From an uncultured delta proteobacterium (GTDB lineage: Bacteria > Myxococcota_A > Polyangia > Fen-1088), in contig CAVYGB010000002.1 in NCBI GenBank assembly GCA_963767925.1, positions 1,952,001 through 2,016,000 on the forward strand: DNA of 64,000 nucleotides, given 5' to 3'. Shown piece by piece: positions 38,554 to 54,918 of this stretch (the first letter of the stretch is position 1; every line of letters begins with the position of its first letter). The notes beneath the pieces were generated by a model that was not told the origin of the DNA, searched no databases, and was given only the letters and a program-made list of their open reading frames with translations. A program made the translations under genes and the position numbers.

Positions 38554-40316
<1,763 letters not shown>

Positions 40317-40335
40317 GTTCGTCCGGAACCGTGCC

Positions 40336-40674
40336 CTATTTCACGTTCCGGGCCAGCGCCTCGAAGGCCGGCTCGAGCGCCAGCACCCCCGCCAGATCCC
40401 CCCGCCCCGCCGCCGCCTCCACCCCCGCCACGGCCACCCCGAACGCCTCCAGCGGCGCCACCGGCAGTCCCGCTGGGGCAGCCGCCCGCAGCGCCTGCCA
40501 CAGCCCACCCGGCGTGGTCGCCCGCCCCTCGTCGTCGGTCAACGCGACAACCAGCTCCCCCGCTCGGACCGCGCCGCCGAGGTCCCGCCGATCCCGGGCC
40601 GGCCAGAGCAGCCGCTTGCAGAGGTCATGACGCACGCGCGCCAGCCAGGCCCGCACCCCGTCGTCGTCGCTCAC
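40336..40674 (-). CDS. Small hypothetical protein with H-box-like RHDLCK motif
   Basis: Co-oriented and ends 19 bp before the activator start; the motif resembles RHDVLK in 35530..38553. Confidence 0.6.
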   Translation of the reverse strand: MSDDDGVRAWLARVRHDLCKRLLWPARDRRDLGGAVRAGELVVALTDDEGRATTPGGLWQALRAAAPAGLPVAPLEAFGVAVAGVEAAAGRGDLAGVLALEPAFEALARNVK

Positions 40675-40719
40675 GCAATATACATATCACATATCGTTAA
40701 TGTAGACCCCTCCCAGTTC

Positions 40720-40795
40720 CGTCTACCCCGTCCCCGTCCCCGTCCCCGTCCTCGCTCCGTTCCGTCGTTCCCGCTCCCGTTCCCGCTCTGCCCCG
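40720..40795. repeat. CCCCGT/CCCGT simple repeat tract
   Basis: ccccgtccccgtccccgtccccgtcc...ttcccgctcccgttcccgct. Confidence 0.7.
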
Positions 40796-40812
40796 ACGCC
40801 GCCCGCGAACCC

Positions 40813-40828
40813 CGGCACGCCCGCTGCA
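40813..40828 (+). promoter_or_regulatory. Putative sigma54 -24/-12 promoter
   Basis: CGGCACGCCCGCTGCA versus consensus TGGCACG-N4-TTGCW, with GG at 40814 and GC at 40826; about 30 bp upstream of the ATG at 40861. Confidence 0.6.
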
Positions 40829-40860
40829 ATCGACCGATCCGAAAGGAACTCGGTCCCAAA

Positions 40861-41259
40861 ATGTCCATCACCGGTCTCGCCTTCCTCATCGCCGCCACCT
40901 CTTTCGCCGGGGAGCTCGCCGCCCTGCCCGCGCCCCACGTCACCCTCGCCATCGGCTACCAGCTCGTGGGCCGCGAGCTCGCCCGCGTCGAGCGCGGCCA
41001 CGTCTTCGTGGCCGGCGACCGGGTGGTAGCCTGGTCCGCCGTGGCCGGCGTCCCCGCCGGCTTCATCGAGCACGTCTGGTCGCGCGACGGCGTCGAGATC
41101 GCCCGCCAGGTGCTCCCGGTCGGCTCGGGTCGCCGCTGGCGGAGCTGGTCCCGCCACACCGTCAAGCCCGGCAGCTACGAAGTCCGCCTCATCGGCCCCG
41201 ACGGCGCCGTCCTCGGCAAGACCCGCTTCGAGGTCGCCGAGCTGGAAGAGGACTGCTGA
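40861..41259 (+). CDS. Exported DUF2914-like protein
   Basis: Signal peptide; HVW...L.V...RWRSWS, G.YEV and G.VL...F pattern. Confidence 0.75.
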   Translation: MSITGLAFLIAATSFAGELAALPAPHVTLAIGYQLVGRELARVERGHVFVAGDRVVAWSAVAGVPAGFIEHVWSRDGVEIARQVLPVGSGRRWRSWSRHTVKPGSYEVRLIGPDGAVLGKTRFEVAELEEDC

Positions 41260-41426
41260 CTGCTGACGACCGTCGCAAGAAGCCCCGTTCCCCGAGCCAA
41301 CGCCACACCCCGCGACCTCCACCTCCACGCGGCCGCGCCCAGCTGGCGCGGCCGCATTTGTCCCCTCCGCCGAGGGGCGCGCCCGGGTAAGATCGGGCTC
41401 GTGGGGCGCGGGGGCTGGCGTCGTGT

Positions 41427-42212
41427 GTGCTGATGGCGCTCGTCGGGAGCCTGCCGGCCGCCCGCGCCCAGCCCGGGCCCGATCTGCCGCTCGGGCGTTC
41501 CAACGTCGAGCTCACCAGCGCACTCTTCACCGGGGCGCCGCCGATCCCGAGCGGCGCCTGGTGGTCGCCAACCGCTCACGCTGAACGCCGACCTGAGCGA
41601 CCGGGCCGGCTTCGCCGGAGGGTTCGGCTGGGTCACCCTGAGTGAAAAGGACCGCGGCGGCCTCTGGGACAGCACCACCGCGATCGGCAACGGGTTCCTG
41701 ACCTTCTGGTGCCAGTTCGAGATCCCGCCGACCTGGCGTCTCTCGGTGGAGATCGCGGGCACCGCCGTGGCCGGCATCTCCGATGCGTCCCGGCCGGCGA
41801 TGCACGCGGCCTGGGACTCCTGGGTGTCGCCGACGGGAGGCTCGGGTTCGTGTTTCCGCTGCGGGCGGCGCGGGCCGCTGGGCTGGGCGGGCGGCCGGGG
41901 CAGGTCGAGCTGCAGAGCGGGCTTATCTTCATGCTCCCCCAGCAGAACGCCGAGGGCGACCCCTTCCGGAAGATGTTGCAGCTCGCTGGGCTACCGGCTC
42001 TGGCCGGGCGAGCGCTCTGCGCCCACCACCTTTACACCTCGGGCGAGGAGCCGAACGCCTGGGAGTCCCGCTCCGCTGGCGGGCGATTGGATCTGGCTGC
42101 TCTACGACGACAGCGCTCGGGTCTTCACCTTTTCTGGCGCTTGCGCGCGCCCGGGATCGCCGACTCGCCCCTGGGCCCCATGCTGCGCGCCGCCGCGAGC
42201 CGCCGGTGCTGA
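41427..42212 (+). pseudogene. Fragmented exported, beta-rich hypothetical gene (multiple frameshifts)
   Basis: Signal peptide in ORF 41427; protein-like sequence continues in other frames (GFAGGFGWVTL...TTAIGNGFLTF, then RLGFVFPLR). Confidence 0.35.
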
Positions 42213-42564
42213 ACGGCGACGACCTGCTGTTCTGGGAGGGCCCTCGATCCCGACCAGGTGCAGGCGGCGAAGGCGCGCCTCGTTTGCGCTCGTCCGGGAT
42301 TGAGCGGCATCGCCGTGACGCGAGCGGTCTTCAGCGAAGGCGCTGTCCCGATTTCTTGTCGCTCCCTCGGGTGCTCGGGCGATACCTTCGCGCTCCCTCC
42401 ATGCCGAGGCGATCGACCTTGGCGTTCAGCGGCGGGCAACCGAGGGAGCGGAGCGACTGAGGTGCTCGTCCGACTGCAACGCCTCAGCTGGGCGGGAAAT
42501 GAGGACGCAACGGTGGAGGCAAGCGACCTGACTGACGCGAGAAATGCGCCCCTGAACCTGAGGA

Positions 42565-43155
42565 TTAAACCCGTTCCCCAGTCGGCTTGCTTTGCCCGTG
42601 GAACTGGCTGTCGTTCCTTCTTGGAATGCCATCGACACGCTCGAAAATCAATTGTCCGATCGCGATGTCGGGATGGAGCATTATGTCGTGCAAACCAAAA
42701 TTCATTATTTCAAAGGTGATGGTACCCGTGAATCCGGCATGGATCGTGGGTGCCGTGAAGTGAATCAAAAGACCACATCGAGCGAATGAGCTTCTTCCTT
42801 CCACACGGGCAGCAATCGCGGGTCGTCCGTCCCGGATCGGAAGGGTAAGGGTCTCGACGGTATTTCCAAGCAAGAACTGCTGCGGCTTGAGCGCATATCC
42901 GCCGTCGCCATCCATTGTGACCTGTTTATAAATTTGACCGAGCAATTTCGGTAGTCCCCGACTTCGAAGGTCGAACGCGATGGGGCTCTTTTCTTTGCAA
43001 ATGCTCAGCGTCGGACCTAGTCGGATATTGACGGCGGTTGTGTCGTACGGCGAGTCTGGTTGCCCAAGAGAAGCGAATCTGGGGCGAGGCTCTGGATCGA
43101 TGAGGATGTCACCCTCGTCAATCGCGCGGTGAATCTCGACGTTTGACAGCACCAT
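42565..43155 (-). CDS. dcd: dCTP deaminase (trimeric dUTPase-like fold)
   Basis: MVLS N-terminus, ARVEGRSSFARCGL, TAPTIHAGFTGTITFEIMN, IGQLIF and FHGQ; low GC. Confidence 0.9.
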   Translation of the reverse strand: MVLSNVEIHRAIDEGDILIDPEPRPRFASLGQPDSPYDTTAVNIRLGPTLSICKEKSPIAFDLRSRGLPKLLGQIYKQVTMDGDGGYALKPQQFLLGNTVETLTLPIRDGRPAIAARVEGRSSFARCGLLIHFTAPTIHAGFTGTITFEIMNFGLHDIMLHPDIAIGQLIFERVDGIPRRNDSQFHGQSKPTGERV

Positions 43156-43157
43156 TG

Positions 43158-43415
43158 CTAGCGACCCGTCATGGCGTCTTTAGGGATTCTGGCGGTGGAC
43201 ATACCACCCTGAGATGGAACCTGGATGAGCGCGTTCCTTTCGTCCTCATCTAGCAACGTCACACTCAGAAGCTTTCGGCCTTCGTCAATCTGACCAGCAG
43301 TTACGAAAGCCGATACTTCCTCGCCCTCAGACGTTTTGAAGAAAACGGTCCTCTCGCTGGGAAACAACCCCTCCTCAACCCTCACTTTCAACCACCTTCT
43401 CTCCAGAGTCATCAT
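43158..43415 (-). CDS. Small (85 aa) hypothetical protein coupled to dcd
   Basis: AGAGGAGG RBS before ATG 43415; stop 2 nt before the dcd ATG; same low GC. Confidence 0.75.
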   Translation of the reverse strand: MMTLERRWLKVRVEEGLFPSERTVFFKTSEGEEVSAFVTAGQIDEGRKLLSVTLLDEDERNALIQVPSQGGMSTARIPKDAMTGR

Positions 43416-43608
43416 CGATGGTCCTCCTCTGGCAGCGGTCAGCCACCCTGTAGCGTGAAGGTGCACTCGTCGGATCCGTCTGACTTCGACGGCCAGAGTA
43501 ATCTGGACAAAAGTTCAGGTCAAGGTTCCGCGAAAGATCAAGGGCCACCACGCAGGATGGTCGCATCGCTGGGCTTGACTTTCGTTCCGGAGGAACCGGG
43601 GTTGGCGT

Positions 43609-44175
43609 GTGCCGCCCAACGTTCCGCTTGGCGGCGCGGCCCTGGTGTCGTGGCTCCTCGCCGGCGGGACGGCCTGCCGGGAACCGGTGCGTGACGGCTT
43701 CCCGGCCTCGCTCGACCGGCGGTGTCCCGACGGCTTCGCGCTGCAAGGGGATCGCTGCTACCGGACGCCATCCGCGTCGCAGGCCCAGGACGCCGCCGCC
43801 GCTAATCCCGGCGCAGGCGGAGATGCCGCTGCGGGGCCGCCGCCGGGGACAGGCGGCGCCGATGCGCCCGCCGGCGCAGGGCCGCCGCCACCAGAAGCGG
43901 CGACCCTGGACGCGGCCGCCGAGCACGCCGCCGCCGACGTCGCCGGGGCGGCCGCCGATCCCCCGACCCCTGTGGGGGGGGCGCGTGCCTCGACGAGGTC
44001 GTACAGGTCGTCGCGGCCCCCAGCCATGCCTGCGCCCGGCGATCCGATGGATCGGTGTTCCGCTGAACTGCGGAGGGCCCCCGCCCCGCCGCGCGCGGCC
44101 GCTACTTCGATGCGGTGGCGGTGGCGCCGAGGTTCTGCAGGCGGGCCAGGTCGACCTTGCCGGCGGCCTCCTTGA
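43609..44175 (+). CDS. Possible small Cys-containing lipoprotein (3' end uncertain)
   Basis: Hydrophobic leader with GTAC, CPDGFALQGDRC motif and an Ala/Pro/Gly tail; overlaps the convergent gene. Confidence 0.4.
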   Translation: MPPNVPLGGAALVSWLLAGGTACREPVRDGFPASLDRRCPDGFALQGDRCYRTPSASQAQDAAAANPGAGGDAAAGPPPGTGGADAPAGAGPPPPEAATLDAAAEHAAADVAGAAADPPTPVGGARASTRSYRSSRPPAMPAPGDPMDRCSAELRRAPAPPRAAATSMRWRWRRGSAGGPGRPCRRPP

Positions 44176-44887
44176 CCGCCTCCATCGACACGCCGTTGCC
44201 TTCCGCCTCGACCATGAAGCGGCTGCCGACGATCACCCGCACCTCGCCGTGTTTGTTGCGGCTGTCCCACTTCTCGAGGGCCTTGTTGCCCGCCAGCGTG
44301 GTCGTGCGCTCGTAGCCATGATCGGTCTCCTTGTCGATGTCGACCGCGGCGAGCCCCATCCCGGCCAGGGCCAGGCTGCCGATCCCGGCCATGTCGATGA
44401 TCTTCAGCGTCAGGCGCGTGCCGCCTTCGCCCTCGTATTTGCCCTCCGCGTGGGAAGCGCCCATGCCGAGCGCGGCGTTCTTCTCGCCGGTGGCGCTGAC
44501 CCGCTTGAGCCCGCCGAGCGTCTCGGGCAACAGCGTCTTCAGCGCGCGGAAGTCGACGAGCGTCGTCTTGGCCGCGCCGGTCAGCCCGCTGATCGCCGCG
44601 GTGGCCGCCTGCATCCCGGCCGCCGCCGCCTGCATGCCCAGCGCCGCGCCTTGCGCCCCCAGCGCCGCACCCTGCGCCCCGAGCGCGCCGCCCTCCTTGC
44701 CCAGCCGGGCGGCGCTCTCCGCCATCTGCGCCTCGGCCTTGGCGAGCTGCGCCTGCGCGAGGTTCGCATGCTCCCTGGCCAGCTCGAGCTGCGCTTGCGC
44801 TGCCTCCGCCTGCTTGTCCACCTCCGACTTGCAGGCCGTGGCTCCTCCGACACAGAGCCCCAGCAACGCTGCGTAGATCCGTCTCAT
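44102..44887 (-). CDS. Lipoprotein with coiled-coil/GAALGAQ repeats and globular C-terminal domain
   Basis: MRRIYAALLGLCVGGATAC lipobox; LKTLLPETLGG...IIDMAG...EKWD...RFMVEAEG. Confidence 0.75.
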   Translation of the reverse strand: MRRIYAALLGLCVGGATACKSEVDKQAEAAQAQLELAREHANLAQAQLAKAEAQMAESAARLGKEGGALGAQGAALGAQGAALGMQAAAAGMQAATAAISGLTGAAKTTLVDFRALKTLLPETLGGLKRVSATGEKNAALGMGASHAEGKYEGEGGTRLTLKIIDMAGIGSLALAGMGLAAVDIDKETDHGYERTTTLAGNKALEKWDSRNKHGEVRVIVGSRFMVEAEGNGVSMEAVKEAAGKVDLARLQNLGATATASK

Positions 44888-45139
44888 GTATGCACGCCTC
44901 CGCCTCCGATATTGTCCGACCGCCGCCTCAGGGCAAGCCGCGATGGTCACACCTCCGAGATCGTTGGCAGACTGGGCGCGCGCCGCGCAGGCCGAGGTGG
45001 CGCGCGGCAGGTGGCGCCCGCGCCATCACGGGGAGTCGGTAGGGTCGCGACGCGGAAAACCGCCGGCACAACCCGGTTGACGTCCGGTAGTGGGGCCCCT
45101 ATCGTCGCGAGGATTCGCAACCGACACCTCAAAGAGCTG

Positions 45140-45700
45140 GTGCGTACCGCTGCGGCGCTGCCCGGACCGAAACTGGACATCCCGCTGTGGGCCTCGCTTC
45201 GAGCCATCGATCTCGGGACCGCGCCTTCTCCCGTGACACCAGCGGGCGAATCGGGCGGAGCTTTGCCGCCCGTCCCGGCTGACGTCCTGAGGGAGATCGC
45301 CGCCTTGCGCGGGCTGGTCTCCCATTGCCTGCAGCGGCTGTCGGCCCGGATCGAGGACAAGCTCGGCGCCGCGCTGGCCGAGGCGCGCCGGGCCTGGGAC
45401 CAGGCCGACAGCGTCACCATCGTCGACGCCGACCTCGGTCGGACGCTCGGCGACGCGCGCCGCAAGCTGGGCGCCGCTGCCGCCGCCACCGGGCCGGAAC
45501 GGCGCGCGCTGGCCGCGGTCGGGCTCGAAGGGCTGCTGGCGCTCGAGGCAGCCTGTGGCCTCACCACTTTGGCCGAGCGGCGGCTCTCGTCGGTCATTCG
45601 CCTGCGCCTGCGCGCGCAGGACGAGGACCTCTTGCCCGGGGGACGCCCCTTTCTCGATCTGAGCGCAGCATTTGCGGAGGCGGCACGCGCATGGGGTTGA
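45140..45700 (+). CDS. Hypothetical helical protein, first gene of the MotAB/ZorAB-like operon (start uncertain)
   Basis: 3' part of ORF 43607..45700; stop overlaps the next ATG by 10 bp. Confidence 0.6.
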   Translation: MRTAAALPGPKLDIPLWASLRAIDLGTAPSPVTPAGESGGALPPVPADVLREIAALRGLVSHCLQRLSARIEDKLGAALAEARRAWDQADSVTIVDADLGRTLGDARRKLGAAAAATGPERRALAAVGLEGLLALEAACGLTTLAERRLSSVIRLRLRAQDEDLLPGGRPFLDLSAAFAEAARAWG

Positions 45701-47847
45701 GCAGGATTCGCTGGATTCTCTCGGGCGCGATCGGCGTGCTGACGCTCGTCGCCACGGTGCAGGCCCTGCGCACCTACCTGGCACACGACCTCACGGTCGG
45801 TGTGCTGTCGGTGCTGGCGCTGGCCATCACCCTGCTGGTGGGGCTCGGCAGCCTGTTCTGGGCCCGCCGCCGCATCGAGCACGAGCTGGTCGCCCTCAAG
45901 CTGCCGCCGGCGAACACTCCATCGATCGCCGCCGCGTCCGATGCAGCGAGCGGCGACGCCCCCGCCGAGGCGGGCGGCGCGACCCCGACCGAGGCCAGCG
46001 TGGTGGTCAGCGGCGAGGTCGCAACCGAGGTCGCGGTGATGTCCAGCGGCGCCGCCCGAGAGACCGCCGTCGGGGCGCCCCCCCGCGAGGTGTCCCCGCC
46101 CATCGCCCCCCGTCCCGCCAGCGTCCTGCTGCGCGAGCGGCGCGAGCGCCTGCTGGCCATCCGGGCCTCCGGTGTGCGCCCCGATCGTCAGGTGCTGGCC
46201 GAGGCCACCGCCGCCGACGAGGCCGGGCGGGCTTATATCGGCCGCTACTTCGTCGCCACCACCGTCCTCATCGGGCTGGTCGGGACCTTCGCCGGCCTGA
46301 TGGCCACCCTCAGCAAGGTCGCCCCCCTCCTCCACGAGAAGGAAGCGGGCGGCCTGGCCCTGCTGGCCGCGCCGCTGGCCGGCCTGCACGTCACCTTCGG
46401 CGCCAGCCTGGTGGCCATCCTGGCCACCCTCGCGCTGGCTCTGGCCCAGGGCGATCTCGCCCTGCACGAGGAGCAGGCCCTGGCCGCCCTCGAGGACCGC
46501 ACCACCCACCACCTGATCCCCGAGCTTTGGCCGCCCAGCGAGGAGCCGGCCGAGCGAACCGTGCGGGCGATGGCCGACATGAAGACCTTGCTCGCCGAGG
46601 CGGTCGCCCAGTCGCTGGAGAAGAGCGCCGCCCGCATGGCCGAGACCGCCCGGGGTGAGTCAGAGCGCGCGGCCCAGGCCCTCGAGACGACCGCCCGCAC
46701 CGTCGAGCGGCAGATCAGCCAGCTCGGCGCCACCGTCGGCGGCGCCCTCGAGGCGACCGCGGCCAGCGTCGAGAAGCAGCTCACCAAGCTCGGGACCTCG
46801 GTGGGCGGCGTCCTGCAGACCAGCGCCGGCACGGTCGAGCACCAGATGACCCAGCTCTACGCCACCGTGCGCTCGGCCCTCGAGGCCAGCGCCAGCTCGG
46901 TGGAAAAGCAGATGACCCAGCTCAGCACCGCGATGGGCGGCACGCTCGAGGCCAGCGCCGGTTCGGTGGAAAAGCAGATGACCCAGCTCAGCTCCGCGGT
47001 GGGCGGCACGCTCGAGTCGAGCGCGAGCTCGGTGGAAAAGCAGATGGCCCAGCTCAGCGCCGCCGTGGCTGAGGCGCTCGAGGCCAGCGCCGGCTCGGTG
47101 GAGAAGCAGATGACCCAGCTCAGCGCCGCGGTGGGCGGGGCGCTCGAGGCGGCCACCACGCGGCACAACGCCGCCATGGCCGAGTCCGCCGCGGCCGCCG
47201 CCCGGCACGTGAGCGAGGCCGCCGAGGAGTCCGTGCGCCGCTCGACCGCCCTGGCCGAGGAGGCGGTGCGCACCACCACCACCGAGCTCGCCCGCACCTT
47301 GCAGCCGATGCTGGCCGCCGAGGCGCAGCGGCTGGAGGTGATCAAGGAGGCCTTCGGCCAGAGCGTGAGCGGCATCCAGCAGGCCACCGAGCGGCTCGCC
47401 GAGCTGCAGGGCGTGCTCGAGGGGACCGCCCGCGCCCAGGCCGCCGCCATCGAGAGCGCCGGGCAAGCGGTCATGGGCGCCTTCGACAAGACGGTGGTGG
47501 GGGCGGGCGCCTCTCTCGACGGCGCCGCCACCAAGCTGGCGGGCGCCGCCCAGCAGCTCAGCACCGGCTTCGAGACCTTCGGCCCCCGCATCGCCACTCT
47601 CTCCACCGAGCTGAGCGCCCTCGGGCGCGAGCTGGCTCTGCAGTCGGCCCGGGGTCCCGAGGGGGATCTCGGGGCGGTCGTGCTCGGCGAGCTCGAGCGG
47701 ATCGGCGCCGGGCTGGACCGTCTGGCCCAGCTGCAGCGGCTGGGCAGCGGCGCGGCCGGGGTGGGGGCCCCGCCGGCGGCCGAGCTGGGGGCGTCTCCGT
47801 CGGCCGAGTCCTTCGGGGCCGACGCGACGGAAGAGACGCATTCGTGA
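45691..47847 (+). CDS. MotA/TolQ/ExbB-type ion-channel subunit with very long helical tail (ZorA-like)
   Basis: Four TM segments including LIGLVGTFAGL and GLHVTFGASLVAI, then ~465 aa of Ala/Glu/Gln-rich helix with 22-aa repeats. Confidence 0.85.
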   Translation: MGLSRIRWILSGAIGVLTLVATVQALRTYLAHDLTVGVLSVLALAITLLVGLGSLFWARRRIEHELVALKLPPANTPSIAAASDAASGDAPAEAGGATPTEASVVVSGEVATEVAVMSSGAARETAVGAPPREVSPPIAPRPASVLLRERRERLLAIRASGVRPDRQVLAEATAADEAGRAYIGRYFVATTVLIGLVGTFAGLMATLSKVAPLLHEKEAGGLALLAAPLAGLHVTFGASLVAILATLALALAQGDLALHEEQALAALEDRTTHHLIPELWPPSEEPAERTVRAMADMKTLLAEAVAQSLEKSAARMAETARGESERAAQALETTARTVERQISQLGATVGGALEATAASVEKQLTKLGTSVGGVLQTSAGTVEHQMTQLYATVRSALEASASSVEKQMTQLSTAMGGTLEASAGSVEKQMTQLSSAVGGTLESSASSVEKQMAQLSAAVAEALEASAGSVEKQMTQLSAAVGGALEAATTRHNAAMAESAAAAARHVSEAAEESVRRSTALAEEAVRTTTTELARTLQPMLAAEAQRLEVIKEAFGQSVSGIQQATERLAELQGVLEGTARAQAAAIESAGQAVMGAFDKTVVGAGASLDGAATKLAGAAQQLSTGFETFGPRIATLSTELSALGRELALQSARGPEGDLGAVVLGELERIGAGLDRLAQLQRLGSGAAGVGAPPAAELGASPSAESFGADATEETHS
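46678..47139 (+). repeat. Seven 66-bp (22-aa) coding repeats, ALEASAxSVEKQMTQLSxAVGG
   Basis: Read directly from the translation; the unit boundary recurs every 66 bp to 47140. Confidence 0.9.
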
Positions 47848-48476
47848 TCCGTCGGGTCCGCCGCAGCCCACTCTTCCCGGTCAACGTCTGGCCCCCGCTC
47901 GTCGACGCCCTCACCATGGTGCTGGCGGCCTTCGTGCTGCTGATCCTGGTGGCCCTGGTGGCCCAGCGTGGGCTGCTCGGGCGCCTGCGCGAGCGGGACC
48001 ATGAGCTGACCCAGCTCCGCGAGGAGAAGGCCCGCATCGAGCGGCGCCTGCGCGCGCTGGCCCCCCAGTCGGCCATCACGGTCGACGACGGCAAGGTCAT
48101 CTTGCAGGGTGAGGTGCTGTTCGCCACCGGCTCGGACGCCCTCACGCCCGAGGGCGACGCCCTGACGGCCGACATGGGCAGCAAGCTCGCCTCGCTGCTG
48201 GCGGCCGAGCCGGGCCAGATGGTCCTGGTGGGCGGTCACACCGACGACCGCCAGATCCACGGCGGCCGCTTCCGGTCGAACTGGGAGCTGTCGTCGGCCC
48301 GGGCCCTGGCCGTGGCCCACGTGTTGACCCGGGCGGGGGTGCCGCCCGATCGGGTCGTCGCCTCCGGCTTCGGCGAGCACCACCCGCGCGCCGACAACCT
48401 CGACGAGCCCGGCCGGGCCAAGAACCGCCGCATCGAGGTGCTGGTGGTCCCCATCCACGCGGTGTCGTCGCGATGA
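47844..48476 (+). CDS. MotB/OmpA-family peptidoglycan-binding stator subunit (ZorB-like)
   Basis: TM with conserved Asp (WPPLVDAL); VLFATGS, GHTDD, NWELSSARA and NRRIEV; GTGA overlap. Confidence 0.9.
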   Translation: MIRRVRRSPLFPVNVWPPLVDALTMVLAAFVLLILVALVAQRGLLGRLRERDHELTQLREEKARIERRLRALAPQSAITVDDGKVILQGEVLFATGSDALTPEGDALTADMGSKLASLLAAEPGQMVLVGGHTDDRQIHGGRFRSNWELSSARALAVAHVLTRAGVPPDRVVASGFGEHHPRADNLDEPGRAKNRRIEVLVVPIHAVSSR

Positions 48477-49015
48477 CCGCCGCCGACGCCCCCGCAGCCG
48501 AGGTCCCCGCGCCCGACGCTCCCGCCGAGGTCGAGCTTCCGCCCGTCGCCGATCCGGCCGACGACCACGCCACGCTGGCCCGGGCCCTGTTCCGGCACGC
48601 GCTGGCGGCGTTCAAGGTGGTGCCCGAGGAGGCGCGCGGGCTGGCCCTGACCGCCCTCGATCGCTTCATCGCCAATCCGGGGCCGGCCGCCTTCGTGGCC
48701 GCGGTGCGCGAGCTGCGCGATACCCGGCGCCGCGTGCTCATCGCCCAGTTCGGCGGGGGCACCTTGCGCCGCGCCCTCAGCGGCGGCATCGCGGCCCTGC
48801 GCCGGGTGCCAGGGCTTCCGTCCGCGGTGGCCGATCGCCTGGCCGCCGACCTGCCCCTCGACGCCCTCACCGGGCAGCGGCTGTTCGCCCTCGTCGCGCT
48901 CTCGCGCACCTACGAGGCGCTGGCCGGCCGGGTGGCCGCCGACACCGAGGACATGCGCCGCCGCTACCAGGCCGCCCCGCCCCGCAAGCGCCGCCCCCCG
49001 CGCGACCGCTTCTGA
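48473..49015 (+). CDS. Hypothetical helical protein with basic C-terminus, last gene of the operon
   Basis: ATGA overlap with the MotB-like gene; typical codon usage. Confidence 0.7.
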   Translation: MTAADAPAAEVPAPDAPAEVELPPVADPADDHATLARALFRHALAAFKVVPEEARGLALTALDRFIANPGPAAFVAAVRELRDTRRRVLIAQFGGGTLRRALSGGIAALRRVPGLPSAVADRLAADLPLDALTGQRLFALVALSRTYEALAGRVAADTEDMRRRYQAAPPRKRRPPRDRF

Positions 49016-49063
49016 CGGCGCGAACGAGATGGGGCGAGGACGGACGCGGCCTCGGTCCCGCGC

Positions 49064-49972
49064 TCAGCGGCAGGGCGGGAGGTAGTTGTCGAAGCGGAGG
49101 CTGTAGACCACGACCTGGTTGGCGGTGTTGCCGACGAAGTCGAAGATCGTCGCGCCCCGCACGACGTCAGCCAGGGTGACCCGCGGCCGCCCCAGGCCCG
49201 GCACGAAGGTCCAGTCCTCGGGCTGGAAGCGGGCGGAGAGCGTCTTCGTCTCGCCCCCGGTCGCCGGCAGCTTCACCACGTGCTGATCGCCGCCGTGGGG
49301 CTGGATCCCGCCGCGCATCTGCACGTGCAGGTCGGCGGTGGCGCTGTAGCGGATGGTGAAGCCCTTCGACATCGTGAGGTTCGCGGTCATCGCCTCGTTG
49401 TTGGCGATGGGGACCACCACCTCGCTCCAGGGCCCGCCGGGAAAGCGAACCTTGGCGACGTATTGATCGCCCTCCCGGACCAGCAAGCTGCCGGTGGCGG
49501 GCACCGTGTTGGCGTGGGCCTGCCACTGCTGCAAGCGGCCGATCGAGGGGGTGGGGCACTCGGTGAGCGGCCCGCCGCCAAAGCCGTCGGAGGGAACCGC
49601 CGCCGACACGTCGCTGGCGCCCGCGTCGGCCGTCCGGGCTCGATCCGCGCCAGAGGCGGCGTCCCGGGGACGCCCGTCGGGCGTCCGGCCATCGGCTCGC
49701 CCCGCGTCGGCCCGGGCGCTGCCACCCGAGCCACCCGACGGCGCGCTGCCGCCGCTGCCGGAAGATCCACCGCTGCCACCGCCGCCGCCGCTGCCCGCCA
49801 CCGGGCTGCCGCCCGAGCCGCTCTGTCCACCGGACCCCGCCGGCGCGCCGGCCTGTCCGCCGGTGCCAGCCGTGTTGCCACCGGTGGGCGGGTTGCCCGA
49901 CGAGCCGGGCGCCTCCGCGGTGCAGGCGACGGCGAGCGAAAGCAGGAGACTCAAGGGCAAGACGCGCTTCAT
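49064..49972 (-). CDS. Lipoprotein with Gly/Ser linker and beta-rich (possibly carbohydrate-binding) domain
   Basis: MKRVL...AVAC lipobox, GGSGG linker; GGAGG RBS-like sequence upstream. Confidence 0.75.
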   Translation of the reverse strand: MKRVLPLSLLLSLAVACTAEAPGSSGNPPTGGNTAGTGGQAGAPAGSGGQSGSGGSPVAGSGGGGGSGGSSGSGGSAPSGGSGGSARADAGRADGRTPDGRPRDAASGADRARTADAGASDVSAAVPSDGFGGGPLTECPTPSIGRLQQWQAHANTVPATGSLLVREGDQYVAKVRFPGGPWSEVVVPIANNEAMTANLTMSKGFTIRYSATADLHVQMRGGIQPHGGDQHVVKLPATGGETKTLSARFQPEDWTFVPGLGRPRVTLADVVRGATIFDFVGNTANQVVVYSLRFDNYLPPCR

Positions 49973-50269
49973 TTCAGACAGACCTCCGATAGGGGGAAAC
50001 CCGAGCCCCGGATACTATCGCGCCCCCACCGCCGCGCCCCTCCTGACCGCCGATGATGCACGGATCGAGCATTTTCGACGCCTCCCCGCACAAAACGCAC
50101 CCCGTCGCCCCGCCGCCGTCGCTCCGCGTTCACGCCACCTGCCCCCAGCGCCCGGGCGTGCCACTCCGGCGCATCTCTCCGGCCCGTCCAGGTGAGGGGC
50201 GCTTGCCACGCCGCAGGCCTCACCCTCCGCGGGGGAGGGTGATGGTCCGTCGCGCCCAGCGGGGGAATT

Positions 50270-50288
50270 GATAATGAGAGTCGCAATC
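50270..50288. promoter_or_regulatory. Fur-box-like site
   Basis: GATAATGAGAGTCGCAATC matches 14/19 positions of GATAATGATAATCATTATC, in an AT-rich patch. Confidence 0.45.
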
Positions 50289-51421
50289 CGATTGTCCGAT
50301 TTATCCAAACGGCGCGCATACGTGACCGCGTGGACGTGAGGCGACCTGCCCGCCCGCCGCACGTGCGGATCCGGCAGAGTCGGCGCGAATCACGCCCGTG
50401 ATCATCGCCGGCAACATGCCCATGGCCGCCAGGCCGAAAGGGTCACGCACCTGCGTCGGCTCGAAGAAACTTTGGTGAATCTTCCTTGCCGGCGGTGACA
50501 AACGTCGGGGTGGGGAAGCGATCTTCAGCGACAACGGCACCTCTCCGACTCCCCGGCGACCGCGACGCGATCGCTGCCGGATCATCGCCTCTGCCAGATC
50601 CGTTCCCCGAGTTTGCGCAACTGGCGCGCGAAAATGGCTCAGGGTTCGTTCGGTAATTCCCGCCCCCCCACGTACGCCGTCGAGACCCATTCAACACAGC
50701 GCGGGCTGGTCTGCTCGCGGAGCCGCTGCCTCCCCTTCGTGTTCGCGCGCACCGGCCAGGCCTGCTGACGATGGCCGTTCCGGGGGGCGGTCAGCCGGTC
50801 GTCCCGCCCCATCAGGTCGTCCCCCCGTCCCACCTGATAGTCGGAGGGGTGGTGCGCCCGCGCCCCGGGCGGCCCCGGCGCGAGCGGCGCTGGTGGACCT
50901 CCTGAAAGGCGCGAGCGAGACCTACTGCGGCACCTCGCTGCCGCCGACGTCCGCGAGCACCTCGACACCCTCTCGGTCGTCCATTCGAGTCCGCCCTCCG
51001 CCTCGACACCCAGGCTCCGCACCCGCTCCCGCGGGCCTGAGCGCGAAGCCGCCCTGTCGGGTCGACGCCGGTTCGTGGGGCGCGCGGGCCGTGTGAACGG
51101 GCGCACGCCCGCCTCCACGCGCGCCGCCTGTTACCTGCTGCTTGCAACCGCGGCACCTGCGCGATACCAGACGACGGCCGTGCAAAACCTGGCTCGCGCG
51201 CTGGCACTTTCTCCGCGACCGACGAAATCGTCCGGCGCTTCCGCGGGTTCCATGCGGCGGCTATTCCCGTCGCTGACGACCCGATTTGGACGCGAAAACC
51301 GACTGGTGCAAAGGTTCGACCTGCCGCAATCTGCGCCCGTCTCGACGCCCTAGACGTTTAAGCGTCGAGTGGTTTGGCAACTAACAGACAACTAGCAGGA
51401 CAGACAAGGAGGGATCGACCG

Positions 51422-51658
51422 ATGCGGAGGATGGTGGGGCCGACTGGGTTGTTGGACGGATACGAGATCAGGCGGGCGTTGGATGCGATGGAGGGGCCGG
51501 GTGATACGAATCGTTCGAACGCGCTCTTCGAGCAGGTCATGGTGAAGCTCGTTGCGCGGGAACGGCGGTATCGTCGCCTGCGCCAGCTCGTCCAGGTCGC
51601 ACGGGCAGCCGTGGCGGCCGTGATGGGCGCCGGAGCACTCCGGCTGCTCACGCACTGA
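51422..51658 (+). CDS. Small hypothetical protein with hydrophobic C-terminus
   Basis: AAGGAGG RBS upstream of ATG 51422. Confidence 0.55.
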   Translation: MRRMVGPTGLLDGYEIRRALDAMEGPGDTNRSNALFEQVMVKLVARERRYRRLRQLVQVARAAVAAVMGAGALRLLTH

Positions 51659-51752
51659 ATGAGCGGAGAGAAGTAGCTCCGGCGCGGCGGCCGGGTGGTG
51701 TGAAGCCGGTGACACTGGCTTCCGCAGGCTGGGTCAGGCAAGCTGGCCAGTC

Positions 51753-52076
51753 ATGAACCGCCCGCCGCCCGCGCCGCCCGAGCACGCTCAGACGCCGCGC
51801 TCGCGCATCGCCTCGGTGCTGCGAGAGGAGCTGGTAACGGCCCGCGAGCTGTCGCAGCGGGTGGGAGTACCGGAGAAGGACGTGACGGTCCACCTCGAGC
51901 ACCTCGCCCGGTCGGCGCGTCGAGAGGGCGAGCGCATGGTCGTCGCCCCCGCCGGGTGCATAAGCTGCGGGTTCGCCTTCGCCGACCGGGAGCGGTTCTC
52001 CAAGCCCGGCCGGTGCCCCCGCTGCCGGGGCACCCAAATCTCGCCGCCCCGCTTCGCGCTCGACGCCTCGGCCTGA
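51753..52076 (+). CDS. HTH plus Zn-ribbon transcriptional regulator (COG3357-like)
   Basis: TARELSQRVGVPEKDVTVHLEHL, CISCGFAF and CPRCRG. Confidence 0.85.
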   Translation: MNRPPPAPPEHAQTPRSRIASVLREELVTARELSQRVGVPEKDVTVHLEHLARSARREGERMVVAPAGCISCGFAFADRERFSKPGRCPRCRGTQISPPRFALDASA

Positions 52077-52107
52077 CGCCCCCAGCGGTCAGAGGGCGGG
52101 GCGCGGC

Positions 52108-52242
52108 CGAACAATCAGACAGGTGCCCCGGGCATCCTCCGAGCGGGCGCTCCTGCCGGATTCGCCAGCGATTTGTGCTCCCCCCGGACCGTTCGCCCTC
52201 GCCCCGCGGCAGCGGGGAGAGGGTGGGGTGAGGGGTCTCCGG
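52108..52242 (-). repeat. Diverged copy of the REP/MITE-like element
   Basis: Terminal gttcgccctcgccccgcggcagcggggagagggtggggtgaggggtct; the preceding core aligns to the reverse complement of the 137-bp unit. Confidence 0.75.
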
Positions 52243-52665
52243 TCAACCGTTGGCGCGCCAGGGCCGAGGGGACCGAAGGGGGGGCTGATGGCAAAATTCG
52301 CCGCTGGCCAGCGGGATACCTCTCCCGCCCGGCGGGATGTACGCCCACGACGGTTCTTCTCCCACTCCGCGAACCGGTCGTGTTATGGTCCGGTTTCTCA
52401 AGTACCGGCTCCGGCCGCCGATTGTCCTGATGTTTCTGGGGCGCGTGGTGCTGGCGGGCATTGCCCGGCGGCACTTCCCGCGGGGGGTGAAGGGACCCTT
52501 CGAGGGTCCGTTGCCAGTTGGTTCGCGGGGGCGTCGGGTGAGGCTCGCCGGTCCCGGTCCGAGACGCCATGTCAGCCGCCTGCCTCGCAGCGCCCGCGAC
52601 CCCCGTTCGCAGGCGCGTCGACCAGCGCCCCCCGGGTAGGGGGACGTGAGGGTGCCGTGAGCCGC

Positions 52666-54918
52666 ATGGCCTCCGAGTGGCCAGAGGGAACCGAGGCGCC
52701 TCCCGGACTGGGTGGCTACCGCCTCCTGCAGCAGCTCGGGCAGCGCGGCCGGGCGGCCACCTTCCTGGCTCGGCGGAGCGGGGCGGACGGGGTCGAGAAG
52801 ACCTTCGCCTTCAAGTGCCTGTTCGACGCGCTCGAGGGCTCGGCCGAGCTCGAGGCGCGGCTGCTGGACGAATGCCGGCGGGTGGCCGCCCTACGCCATC
52901 CCAGCATCGCCGAGGTCTACGACTTCGGGGCCAGCGACGGGACCTTCTACGTCGCCATGGAGCACGTCGACGGCCGCGACCTGGGGGCCATCCAGCGCCG
53001 CCTGCGCGAGCTGGGCCGCAAGATGCCGCTCGGGATCGCCCTGCGGCTGGCGGCCGACGTCTGTGCCGCGCTCGAGCACGCCCACGGCCGCACCGACGAG
53101 GTGGGCGCCCCGCAGCCATTGGTGCACGGGGGCGTCTCGCCCGCGAACGTCATGGTGACCCGGGAGGGGGTGGTCAAGCTGCTCGACTTCGCCACCGCCC
53201 GGGTCATGGGCGAGCGGCAGCCCGGACGCTCCGGGACGAACCCCGAGGAGCAGCCCGCCTTCCTGGCCCCCGAGCAGCTCCGCAGCGAGGGCGCCAGCTC
53301 CGGCGTCAGCGTGGGCGCCAGCGTCAGGGACGACGCCCGCGTCGACGTGTACGGGCTGGGCGCCGTCCTCTACCTCCTGCTCACCGACCGCCGCGCCTCG
53401 GACGAACCGCGCGACCTGAGGGCCCTGCGCCCCGAGTTGCCCGAGTCGGTGGTCGAGCTGACCCGCCGCGCGCTCGAGCCCGATCGGGAGCGCCGCTTCG
53501 CCAGCGCCACGGAGATGGGGCGGGCCCTGGGGGCCGAGCTGACTTTGCTGGCCCCCACCACAGGCCCGGCCAAGGTGGCCACCTTCGTCACCGATCTGTT
53601 CGCACCCGAGGCGTCCCGCGCGGTGAGCATGGTGGCCACCCGCATGGGATTGCCGGCCGTGACCATGCCCCTTCCCACCCTGCCGGCCGCCGCCCCGGCC
53701 CCCGACGCGCCGGCGAGCGCGCCCGCGGCGTTCGACTCCCTCCCGCCGGCGCCGCAGGTGAAGCCACAGCCGATACCGGCGGTGCCGTTCGAGGCCCTGC
53801 CGAAGCCGCAGCCGCTGTCGTCGTCGTACGACCCCCTCCCGCTCCCGCCGGAGCCAGCGCCAGCGAGCGTCATCGCGTACGGCGCCCTCCCGATGCCAGC
53901 ACTGGCCAGGCCGCAGGCGGTGCCCGGGACCGCGTTCGACCCGGCCAAGCCGCAGGCGTCGGGGGCGTTCGACGTCGCCAAGCCGCAGCCGCAACCGCAG
54001 CCGTCGGGGGCGTTCGACCTGAAGCCACAGGCGTCGGGGGCGTTCGACCTGAAGCCGGCGGCGTCGGGGGCGCTCGACCGGCACCGGCACCGGCAGGGGC
54101 AGCCGGAAGCGGCGATCCTGCTGGAGCGGGCGGTGCGCGTTGAGAAGACCGAACGTGCCGAGCGGCGCGATCGGCGCGCCACCCAGGGCATCCCCCTGCT
54201 CAACATCCGGCGGCGCTTTCGCCGCAAGCGGACCCTTTTGACGGTGTCGGCCCTCGCCGCGCTGGCCATCGTGCTGACGGGGGCCTTCGCCCTCCGCCGG
54301 GGCACCCCCCACCCCGACCCGCAGCCCGGGAGCCTGCCCGCCCCCGCCGCAACTGCGCCCGATCCCATCCCCCCTTCGCCGCTGACCCCGCCCTTGCCGG
54401 TCGCCGCGCCACCGCCCGCCCCCCCTGCGCCGGTGGCCCCGCTCGCCGCGGCCCCTCCGGAGACCCCTCCTGCGGTCCCGCCGGCCGTGACTCCCCCGGA
54501 AGGACCCCCTCCCGCCCCACCCACCTCCTCGACCCGGGCCGCGCTCCCGCCCCTCGACGATCCGATGGAGCTCCCTTCGGCCGAGCCCACCCGTCGCGCG
54601 CCCCCTCTGACCGGTCCGGGCGGCGTGTTCGACGGCCGGGTCCTGCAGAAGATCGTGCGCAAAGCCCGCGTGAAGTTCGCCCGCTGCCTCGCCTACCACG
54701 GCGAGAGCCAGGCCAAATCCCGCCGCCAGCTGGCAGTCTTCCTGCGTGTCGCCAGCACCGGCAAGGTCACCGCCGCCGACGTGAACCTGGTGGGCGTGAC
54801 CGACGAGCCCCTGGCCACCTGCCTGGAACGCGAAGCCTCCCGCCTCCGCTTCCCCCGCCACCCCGAGAAGGAAGTCCGCTTCTCCTTCCCCGTCTCCGGC
54901 ACCCGCCCCCTCCGCTAG
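52666..54918 (+). CDS. Membrane Ser/Thr pseudokinase with Pro-rich linker and C-terminal AgmX/PglI-like domain
   Basis: Kinase fold (HPSIA, YVAMEHVDG, APE, DVYGLG) but HGGVSPAN and DFA; one TM; C-terminal C...G.V...C...LRFP...FSFP. Confidence 0.85.
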   Translation: MASEWPEGTEAPPGLGGYRLLQQLGQRGRAATFLARRSGADGVEKTFAFKCLFDALEGSAELEARLLDECRRVAALRHPSIAEVYDFGASDGTFYVAMEHVDGRDLGAIQRRLRELGRKMPLGIALRLAADVCAALEHAHGRTDEVGAPQPLVHGGVSPANVMVTREGVVKLLDFATARVMGERQPGRSGTNPEEQPAFLAPEQLRSEGASSGVSVGASVRDDARVDVYGLGAVLYLLLTDRRASDEPRDLRALRPELPESVVELTRRALEPDRERRFASATEMGRALGAELTLLAPTTGPAKVATFVTDLFAPEASRAVSMVATRMGLPAVTMPLPTLPAAAPAPDAPASAPAAFDSLPPAPQVKPQPIPAVPFEALPKPQPLSSSYDPLPLPPEPAPASVIAYGALPMPALARPQAVPGTAFDPAKPQASGAFDVAKPQPQPQPSGAFDLKPQASGAFDLKPAASGALDRHRHRQGQPEAAILLERAVRVEKTERAERRDRRATQGIPLLNIRRRFRRKRTLLTVSALAALAIVLTGAFALRRGTPHPDPQPGSLPAPAATAPDPIPPSPLTPPLPVAAPPPAPPAPVAPLAAAPPETPPAVPPAVTPPEGPPPAPPTSSTRAALPPLDDPMELPSAEPTRRAPPLTGPGGVFDGRVLQKIVRKARVKFARCLAYHGESQAKSRRQLAVFLRVASTGKVTAADVNLVGVTDEPLATCLEREASRLRFPRHPEKEVRFSFPVSGTRPLR

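Follow-up and report, generated by a model that had tools for sequence, protein, structure and literature searches.

To which system does an ion-driven motor pair belong when it is encoded between two small genes of no known family, and is its role one of defence or of housekeeping? This question is raised by a four-gene operon (about 45077/45140-49015, + strand) in a stretch of 64,000 nucleotides (nt) of contig CAVYGB010000002.1, from an uncultured delta proteobacterium; the whole of this stretch, which was the unit analysed, is referred to below as the window. A first-pass annotation, drawn up from the letters of the DNA, had taken the operon for a candidate new Zorya-related system. The relationship to Zorya held, while the novelty had to be narrowed, as the gene layout is already that of type III Zorya (zorFABG). 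In our reading, to which we would assign a probability of about 0.6, the operon is a lineage-specific derivative (Polyangia, Myxococcota) of the type III Zorya anti-phage system. It is considered an offshoot of type III rather than an unrelated system, since it has the zorFABG layout and since its ZorA- and ZorB-like products score best on type III models. What is new is the pair of partner families, along with the heterodimer that they are predicted to form and the restricted taxonomic range of the variant.

The motor pair and the organization of the operon

The operon comprises the following genes (product lengths in amino acids, aa):

45077-45700 (alternative start 45140), + strand: gene 1 (product P1), in the zorF position; cytoplasmic helical protein of 186-207 aa
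45691-47847, + strand: gene 2, ZorA-like; 718 aa, putative MotA-class channel head and long cytoplasmic tail
47844-48476, + strand: gene 3, ZorB-like; 210 aa, one membrane helix and an OmpA-type peptidoglycan-binding domain
48473-49015, + strand: gene 4 (product P4), in the zorG position; 180 aa, cytoplasmic, five helices and a basic C-terminal tail

As the first-pass annotation had described, the four open reading frames (ORFs) are co-directional and overlapping, and a third-position G+C content of 0.85-0.98 in the correct frames provides a strong coding signal; the length given for the last product, 180 aa, was likewise confirmed. The end of gene 1 (stop codon TGA, 45698-45700) overlaps the start of zorA (ATG at 45691), the shared letters being ATGGGGTTGA, while zorA and zorB share a GTGA (47844-47847) and zorB and gene 4 an ATGA (48473-48476). 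Couplings of the ATGA/GTGA kind were also found in five relatives. The genes on either side (44102-44866 and 49064-49609) sit on the opposite strand, and the four genes therefore form a self-contained unit.

In type III Zorya, as described by Payne et al. 2021 (PMC8565338), zorAB is flanked by genes for a DUF3348 protein (ZorF) and a DUF2894 protein (ZorG), and the canonical order is given as zorFABG by Hu et al. 2024 (PMC11946911). A Ralstonia locus encodes a DUF3348 protein of 246 aa, a DUF802 protein of 698 aa, an OmpA protein of 215 aa and a DUF2894 protein of 219 aa, with overlapping junctions, and most of 52 further canonical loci, collected with the Ralstonia ZorG as query, share the zorFABG order. 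The window operon has the same succession of small gene, zorA, zorB and small gene, and its junctions overlap in the same manner.

The product of gene 3 matched the PADLOC model ZorB3 (PDLC00651) at 146 bits (E 2.6e-43), residues 14-205 being aligned to profile positions 14-206 of 215, and the runner-up PADLOC model, ZorB1, reached 55.9 bits. No other protein of the genome matches ZorB3 over its full length, and this one is collinear with canonical ZorB3 proteins, at 32-36% identity. The earlier description of a MotB/OmpA protein with a membrane aspartate was borne out by a Pfam OmpA domain (62.6 bits) and by Asp21 (codon 47904-47906), which lies in the membrane helix. Both W16 and D21 were invariant in all of the 11 aligned ZorB sequences. 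On these sequence grounds, gene 3 encodes a ZorB3-class subunit of type III Zorya.

Could the pair be a flagellar stator, a Tol/Ton system or a gliding (Agl-type) motor? MotAB and PomAB stators resemble the variant in the ion-conducting A and B pair, the membrane Asp of the B subunit and the OmpA-like peptidoglycan anchor, and the best PDB match of the ZorB OmpA domain was to flagellar MotB chains (66 bits). Agl/TolQR-type gliding motors and Tol-Pal motors are found in the phylum of the variant and are ion-driven motors of the MotA/ExbB superfamily, to which the variant may belong as well; their partners are of the ExbD/TolR type, and their MotA/TolQ proteins are short. The A subunits of flagellar, Tol/Ton and gliding motors are not known to have a tail such as that of the variant ZorA, about 460 aa long. 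In terms of curated models, NCBIfam MotB, MotS and MotD all scored ZorB far below their cut-offs (e.g., 81.6 versus 301), ZorB3 outscored every other model, and Pfam MotA_ExbB missed the window ZorA yet detected 11 ordinary MotA_ExbB/TolQ paralogues elsewhere in the genome. Furthermore, Pfam revealed no flagellar gene, helicase or HNH nuclease among 26 neighbouring ORFs, in agreement with the first-pass annotation. With 146 bits on ZorB3 and 58.1 bits on ZorA3, the view of the pair as a long-tailed ZorAB-type motor was upheld, and a flagellar, Tol/Ton or gliding machine is very improbable.

The product of gene 2 had been characterized as a MotA/ExbB-type protein of 718 aa with the motif GLVGTFAG and a long tail. 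The length, the motif and the tail were recovered: hydrophobic segments occur at residues 8-59 and 186-259, the motif occupies residues 195-202, and the tail extends over about 460 aa. The PADLOC ZorA3 models matched at 58.1 bits (PDLC00648, E 1.7e-16), 50.2 and 32 bits, and a profile of 28 channel heads from the clade, aligned by hhalign with canonical ZorA3 heads, scored 96.4% (E 1.2e-9) over 110 columns that take in both channel helices. The motor pair is homologous to ZorA3 and ZorB3, and gene 2 qualifies as a long-tailed, ZorA3-class subunit of type III Zorya.

Part of the tail consists of tandem repeats:

46678-47150, + strand: tandem 66-nt (22-aa) repeats in the ZorA tail, 7.2 copies, Tandem Repeats Finder score 454

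Hydrophobic residues of the tail recur with a period of 3.66-3.67 positions, whereas a period of 3.5 carries no power; this pattern is the signature of an 11-residue coiled-coil repeat. It agrees with the right-handed coiled-coil structure that has been reported for ZorA of E. coli. Tail length is variable: among 35 loci, between about 330 and 870 residues separate the channel motif from the C-terminus, and the total length of canonical ZorA likewise varies (643-1240 aa).

The flanking proteins and their predicted complex

The P1 family, aligned from 34 members, is characterized by the conserved motifs AWDQAD and LLPxGRPFLDL. For P4, an exhaustive profile search returned 119 cluster representatives at E<=1e-3, all of them of 243 aa or less, and there are therefore no fusions to larger domains; for one divergent representative (P0130) no locus was found in the genome contigs. 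Structure prediction yielded five helices for P4, with a predicted local distance difference test (pLDDT) score of 90.6, and an all-helical fold of seven helices for P1 (pLDDT 80.4). Foldseek returned nothing from the PDB at E<=0.001 for either protein, and an ESM Atlas look-up of P4 gave no usable match. Overall, the fold searches produced generic helical bundles only, with no recognizable nuclease or other enzyme fold. P1 and P4 are each a new helical family of their own.

The two proteins are predicted to bind each other. Modelling of the P1-P4 complex gave a median ipSAE (an interface score based on predicted aligned errors) of 0.82, versus 0.00 for the best of three controls; the runs agreed in 83% or more of their contacts, and the pLDDT of the partners was 74 or higher. 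When the tool was calibrated, 116 of 157 solved complexes and 2 of 215 mismatched pairs attained this mark, figures that apply here only roughly, as own alignments were used. As there is no known complex resembling it, memorization is an unlikely explanation for the pass. These scores express the confidence of a model rather than measured binding. The predicted interface comprises the N-terminal motif, helix 143-176 and the C-terminal helix of P1, together with residues 104-161 of P4, and takes in the conserved residues R169 and R175 of P1 and L123, R136, L137, L140, L143, L150 and R153 of P4.

The interface also bears on the start of gene 1, which had been annotated as a protein of about 186 aa. 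The ORF is real, whereas its start at GTG 45140 is doubtful, and the product is better given as 186-207 aa. The start probably lies upstream of this codon, by a few to 21 codons, because GTG 45140, which is not conserved in a same-genus genome, cuts a conserved N-terminal motif (L..LV..AR.LPG, beginning 4 codons before 45140 and kept in relatives), and because the predicted complex has contacts at P1 residues 9-21. A candidate start is TTG 45077 (207 aa), but it coincides with a conserved promoter-like site:

45077-45105, + strand: putative sigma-70-like promoter hexamers, TTGACG-17 nt-TATCGT, recognized from sequence only

This is the sole promoter-like site in 44700-49300, where 0.1 would be expected by chance. 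Both hexamers are kept in the same-genus genome, in which the spacer differs.

A possible mode of action is offered by analogy with the Zorya systems that have been studied. In type I Zorya (E. coli ZorABCD), according to Hu et al. 2024 (PMC11946911), a peptidoglycan-binding proton motor of the ZorA5B2 type depends on an essential membrane Asp in ZorB, and a right-handed coiled-coil tail relays the signal to soluble partners; in these respects the variant is likened to it. Unlike type I, the variant has neither ZorC nor ZorD (a DNA-binding protein and a nuclease/helicase) among its neighbours, PADLOC having found no match to ZorC, ZorD or ZorE among 14 neighbouring ORFs, and the ZorB1 and ZorA1 models score much lower on it than the type III models. 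In the variant, ZorB would provide the proton-accepting Asp21 and would be anchored to peptidoglycan via its OmpA domain, while ZorA, presumably in a 5:2 ratio to ZorB, would form the channel ring and a right-handed coiled-coil tail of roughly 60 nm projecting into the cytoplasm. P1 and P4, as small non-enzymatic helical proteins, would form a soluble heterodimer and would act as the cytoplasmic partner (adaptor or regulator) of this tail, which they may contact. An envelope perturbation such as phage entry might then allow ZorB to engage peptidoglycan, upon which ZorA, tail included, would be turned by the ion flow and the partner proteins would receive the signal, as in the systems studied.

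Distribution of the cassette and the competing readings

Five related genomes contain all four genes in an unchanged order. A larger set of 46 loci was gathered by a pattern search with the clade ZorB alignment, the P4 alignments lacking a sufficiently conserved stretch, and all 46 are labelled Myxococcota, Polyangia or older names for these. The claim of two unknown partner genes accompanying the motor proved well founded. P4 follows ZorB in 44 of the 46 loci (44 of 45 that can be judged, one miss being a contig end), and P1 precedes ZorA in 34 of 46 (34 of 37 that can be judged, nine misses being contig ends and three real). Two loci (L111 and L113) contain ZorB and P4 only, with no P1-ZorA.

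A few loci depart further from this arrangement. L079 (SHYY01000027.1, 4019-6606) carries ZorA and ZorB only, P1 and P4 being absent although the flanking sequence is present. In genome G033, which belongs to another family, the cassette is split: L018 (G033:C122, 5470-9988) encodes a P1-like and a ZorA-like protein, followed by an SLT/LysM lytic transglycosylase in the place of ZorB, and a separate contig (L113/L142, G033:C69) carries a Ser/Thr kinase, ZorB and a weak P4-like protein. This split suggests P1-ZorA and ZorB-P4 sub-modules. In three other loci (L085:7076-7678, L089:1386-1991 and L102:4924-5538), a gene for a protein of about 200 aa lies directly 3' of P4 on the same strand, with a gap of 1-17 nt; its product weakly matches the C-terminal part of BrxHI (25 bits), and the cassette may have this as a fifth gene in one sub-clade.

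In a tree of 106 ZorB sequences, all 46 variant ZorB proteins formed one clade (support 1.0) on a long stem (1.69), and this clade, together with the ZorB proteins of Myxococcota loci of the DUF2894 type, was split from proteobacterial type III with a support of 0.995. The variant thus resembles type III Zorya in its four-gene operon, in its full-length ZorB3 match, its ZorA3-homologous head and its long, repeat-rich tail of variable length, and in the grouping of its ZorB with that of Myxococcota type III. It differs in its shorter flanking proteins, which are not detectably of the DUF3348 and DUF2894 families, in a ZorA lacking a DUF802 match, in the long branch of its ZorB clade and in its confinement to some families of a single Myxococcota class.

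The cassette is patchy in its occurrence. P4 was detected in 40 of 401 sampled genomes of the class, distributed over 19 of 71 genomes of its own family, 10 of 23 and 7 of 15 in two others, and 0 of 67 and 0 of 33 elsewhere; in one genus it was present in 9 of 20. ZorA was found in 8 of 41 relatives. In a phylum-wide sample of 401 genomes, P4 occurred in two and DUF2894 in 17. All of these sets are samples in which many genomes are incomplete, and the genome of the window is itself 84% complete. The flanks of the cassette are not conserved either, the 211 flank proteins falling into 181 clusters. Patchy presence and unconserved flanks are, in combination, typical of dispensable cassettes.

A number of points weigh against descent from a type III defence system, and they concern ZorA, the flanking proteins, the genomic context and the published record. 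To begin with, the evidence for ZorA is thinner than that for ZorB. Part of the score of its ZorA3 hidden Markov model (HMM) falls in the repetitive tail, and neither Pfam MotA_ExbB (E<=0.1) nor DUF802 matched the protein. The profile of its head retrieved no MotA, ExbB or ZorA chain from the PDB, and a sequence search of the PDB with ZorA alone retrieved no MotA or ZorA chain. The ZorA homologue of L018 reached 17.9 bits on Pfam MotA_ExbB, for which the cut-off is 22.9. The tie of ZorA to the MotA/ExbB/TolQ family therefore runs only via ZorA3.

The second point is that P1 and P4 have no match in Pfam, PADLOC or NCBIfam, and the first-pass annotation was right to call them proteins of no known family. 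DUF2894 and DUF3348 were found in none of 16 P4-family and none of 7 P1-family members, even at E<=10. For 95 P4-family members, neither DUF was among the matches listed (25 of 44 families), and no family in that list was common to more than two of the 95. In the genome as a whole there was no match to DUF3348 at E<=0.01 or to DUF2894 at E<=0.001. Moreover, hhalign comparisons of the 34-member P1 and 95-member P4 profiles with canonical, Myxococcota-only and pooled ZorF and ZorG profiles all remained below 1%, versus 96.1% for Myxococcota ZorF and 99.1% for Myxococcota ZorG against their canonical counterparts. The test has power, because the Myxococcota proteins in the ZorF position are mostly Pfam-negative and are still recognized at 96.1%. 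As far as these comparisons reach, the operon appears to encode neither a DUF3348 partner upstream nor a DUF2894 partner downstream. P1 and P4 may be either a ZorF and a ZorG that have changed past recognition or replacements for them.

If they are true orthologues that have drifted beyond sequence detection, the operon is simply an ordinary type III Zorya, and divergence would be its sole novelty. The positions, the translational coupling and the helical nature of the two proteins agree with this, and accelerated co-divergence is suggested by the length of the stem on which the ZorB clade sits. Even where Myxococcota loci retain an evident DUF2894 gene, the ZorF position evolves rapidly: among four upstream ORFs from such loci, two had no Pfam match, one had a sub-threshold DUF3348 match, and one matched only metallo-beta-lactamase and may not be ZorF. 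In addition, the best hmmsearch match of the P1 profile among 860 ORFs of canonical Myxococcota loci (E 0.011) was the very ORF that the ZorF profile identifies. This weak link was rejected as proof of kinship, since hhalign gives it no support. Against orthology stand the profile-profile values below 1% for every pairing, with controls at 96-99%, and the lengths of the proteins, 186-207 aa for P1 and 180 aa for P4 versus 246 aa for ZorF and 219 aa for ZorG. On balance, we regard simple orthology as possible, with the odds somewhat against it.

Two observations on canonical Myxococcota loci belong here. L139 (2949-3881) and L136 (2597-3634) encode ZorF-position proteins of 310 and 345 aa beside a clear DUF2894 ZorG, and Pfam DUF3348 and DUF802 do not detect their ZorF and ZorA; the standard models therefore undercount type III systems across Myxococcota. 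L137 (G030:C33) and L140 (G274:C15) encode a ZorF-like protein, a short ZorA-like protein and a DUF2894 ZorG, with no ZorB detected between them, and may represent a three-gene form of type III.

A bolder version of the derivative reading would make the operon a fourth Zorya type, in which a type III-derived ZorAB works with an unrelated, pre-formed helical heterodimer in exchange for ZorF and ZorG. We hold this to be rather unlikely. If it were true, Zorya motors could swap their partner module even where the partners are not enzymes, and a defensive or other output could be produced in the absence of a nuclease, through a heterodimer acting on the tail or on a host target. No relevant "type IV" Zorya or "Zorya-like" system was found in the literature, among the matches listed.

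The third group of points concerns the genomic context. The linkage to defence islands that the first-pass annotation had proposed to survey did not emerge clearly. PADLOC matches occurred in 2 of 14 neighbouring ORFs of the window (a Ser/Thr kinase and a sigma-54 activator), both of them generic, and among 150 proteins flanking the 46 loci (within ~3.2 kb) 14 matched PADLOC at E<=1e-5, of which only two look defence-specific (mREase_IV-like in L100, PbeA-like in L092). As had been stated earlier, the G+C content is host-like, the operon (0.72-0.75) having that of the window (73%). Neither P1 nor P4 has an enzymatic fold.

A rival reading places the role of the operon outside defence. The motor would then be an accessory one of the envelope, in which ion flow at the inner membrane drives work linked to peptidoglycan or the signalling of envelope stress, with P1-P4 as its cytoplasmic regulator. 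Host-like G+C, flanks not enriched in defence genes, the lack of a nuclease or other effector fold in P1 and P4, and synteny of the locus within the genus all agree with such a role, as does the split cassette of G033, where the P1-ZorA pair precedes a lytic transglycosylase and not ZorB. The canonical Ralstonia locus, too, is situated amid ordinary genes (a LysR regulator, an MFS transporter and a hydrolase). On the other hand, presence of the cassette varies within families and genera, as in its own family and the genus mentioned above, and the flanks are unconserved across loci. Housekeeping motors are already served by the 11 ordinary MotA/ExbB/TolQ paralogues, among which the window ZorA is not included, and the nearest characterized relatives are, in the published descriptions available, defence systems. 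We consider an accessory housekeeping motor unlikely. The first-pass annotation had left the choice between defence and housekeeping open, and patchy presence on one side, with host-like G+C and no island on the other, justified this caution; we infer that defence, or the sensing of envelope breaches, ranks above a housekeeping role, although not by much.

Finally, the published basis for an anti-phage role is narrow: in the text of Payne et al. (PMC8565338), the activity of type III rests on one Stenotrophomonas system in E. coli. Type III is the least understood Zorya type, its two partners being domains of unknown function, and no mechanistic study of it turned up among the records and excerpts that the literature search returned. 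The proposed type III derivative would offer a tractable case of how a Zorya tail communicates with non-enzymatic partners, which are here small and confidently folded and have a strongly predicted mutual interface, beside a motor that is still of type III.

HMM-based defence annotation would report a bare ZorAB pair at this locus, and about one-tenth of the sampled genomes of the class carry the P4 family. To our knowledge, phage defence has been little studied in these bacteria.

Neighbouring genes

The gene content of the window is myxobacterial, including Ser/Thr kinases, sigma-54 activators, TPR proteins and TonB. No tRNA gene was detected in 40000-52500, and the region 44700-49300 contains no terminator-like site.

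About 1.5 kb upstream of the operon lies an islet of low G+C content (42200-43600, about 0.55 versus 0.73 around it), which looks like a small foreign insertion. It carries a dCTP deaminase-like gene (42565-43155, minus strand; Pfam DCD, 98.6 bits) and an ORF of 102 aa (43158-43466, minus strand). The deaminase was rejected as a defence type, as it has no PADLOC match, and the 102-aa ORF likewise has none.

On the other side of the operon, a 753-aa Ser/Thr kinase (52657-54918) matches many of the PADLOC PD-T4-6 kinase models, with up to 143 bits, which probably reflects generic kinase similarity in a kinase-rich genome. Between the two, in a region (50000-52600) of otherwise weak coding signal, a 107-aa protein with a PF0610-like winged helix and a zinc ribbon is encoded at 51753-52076.

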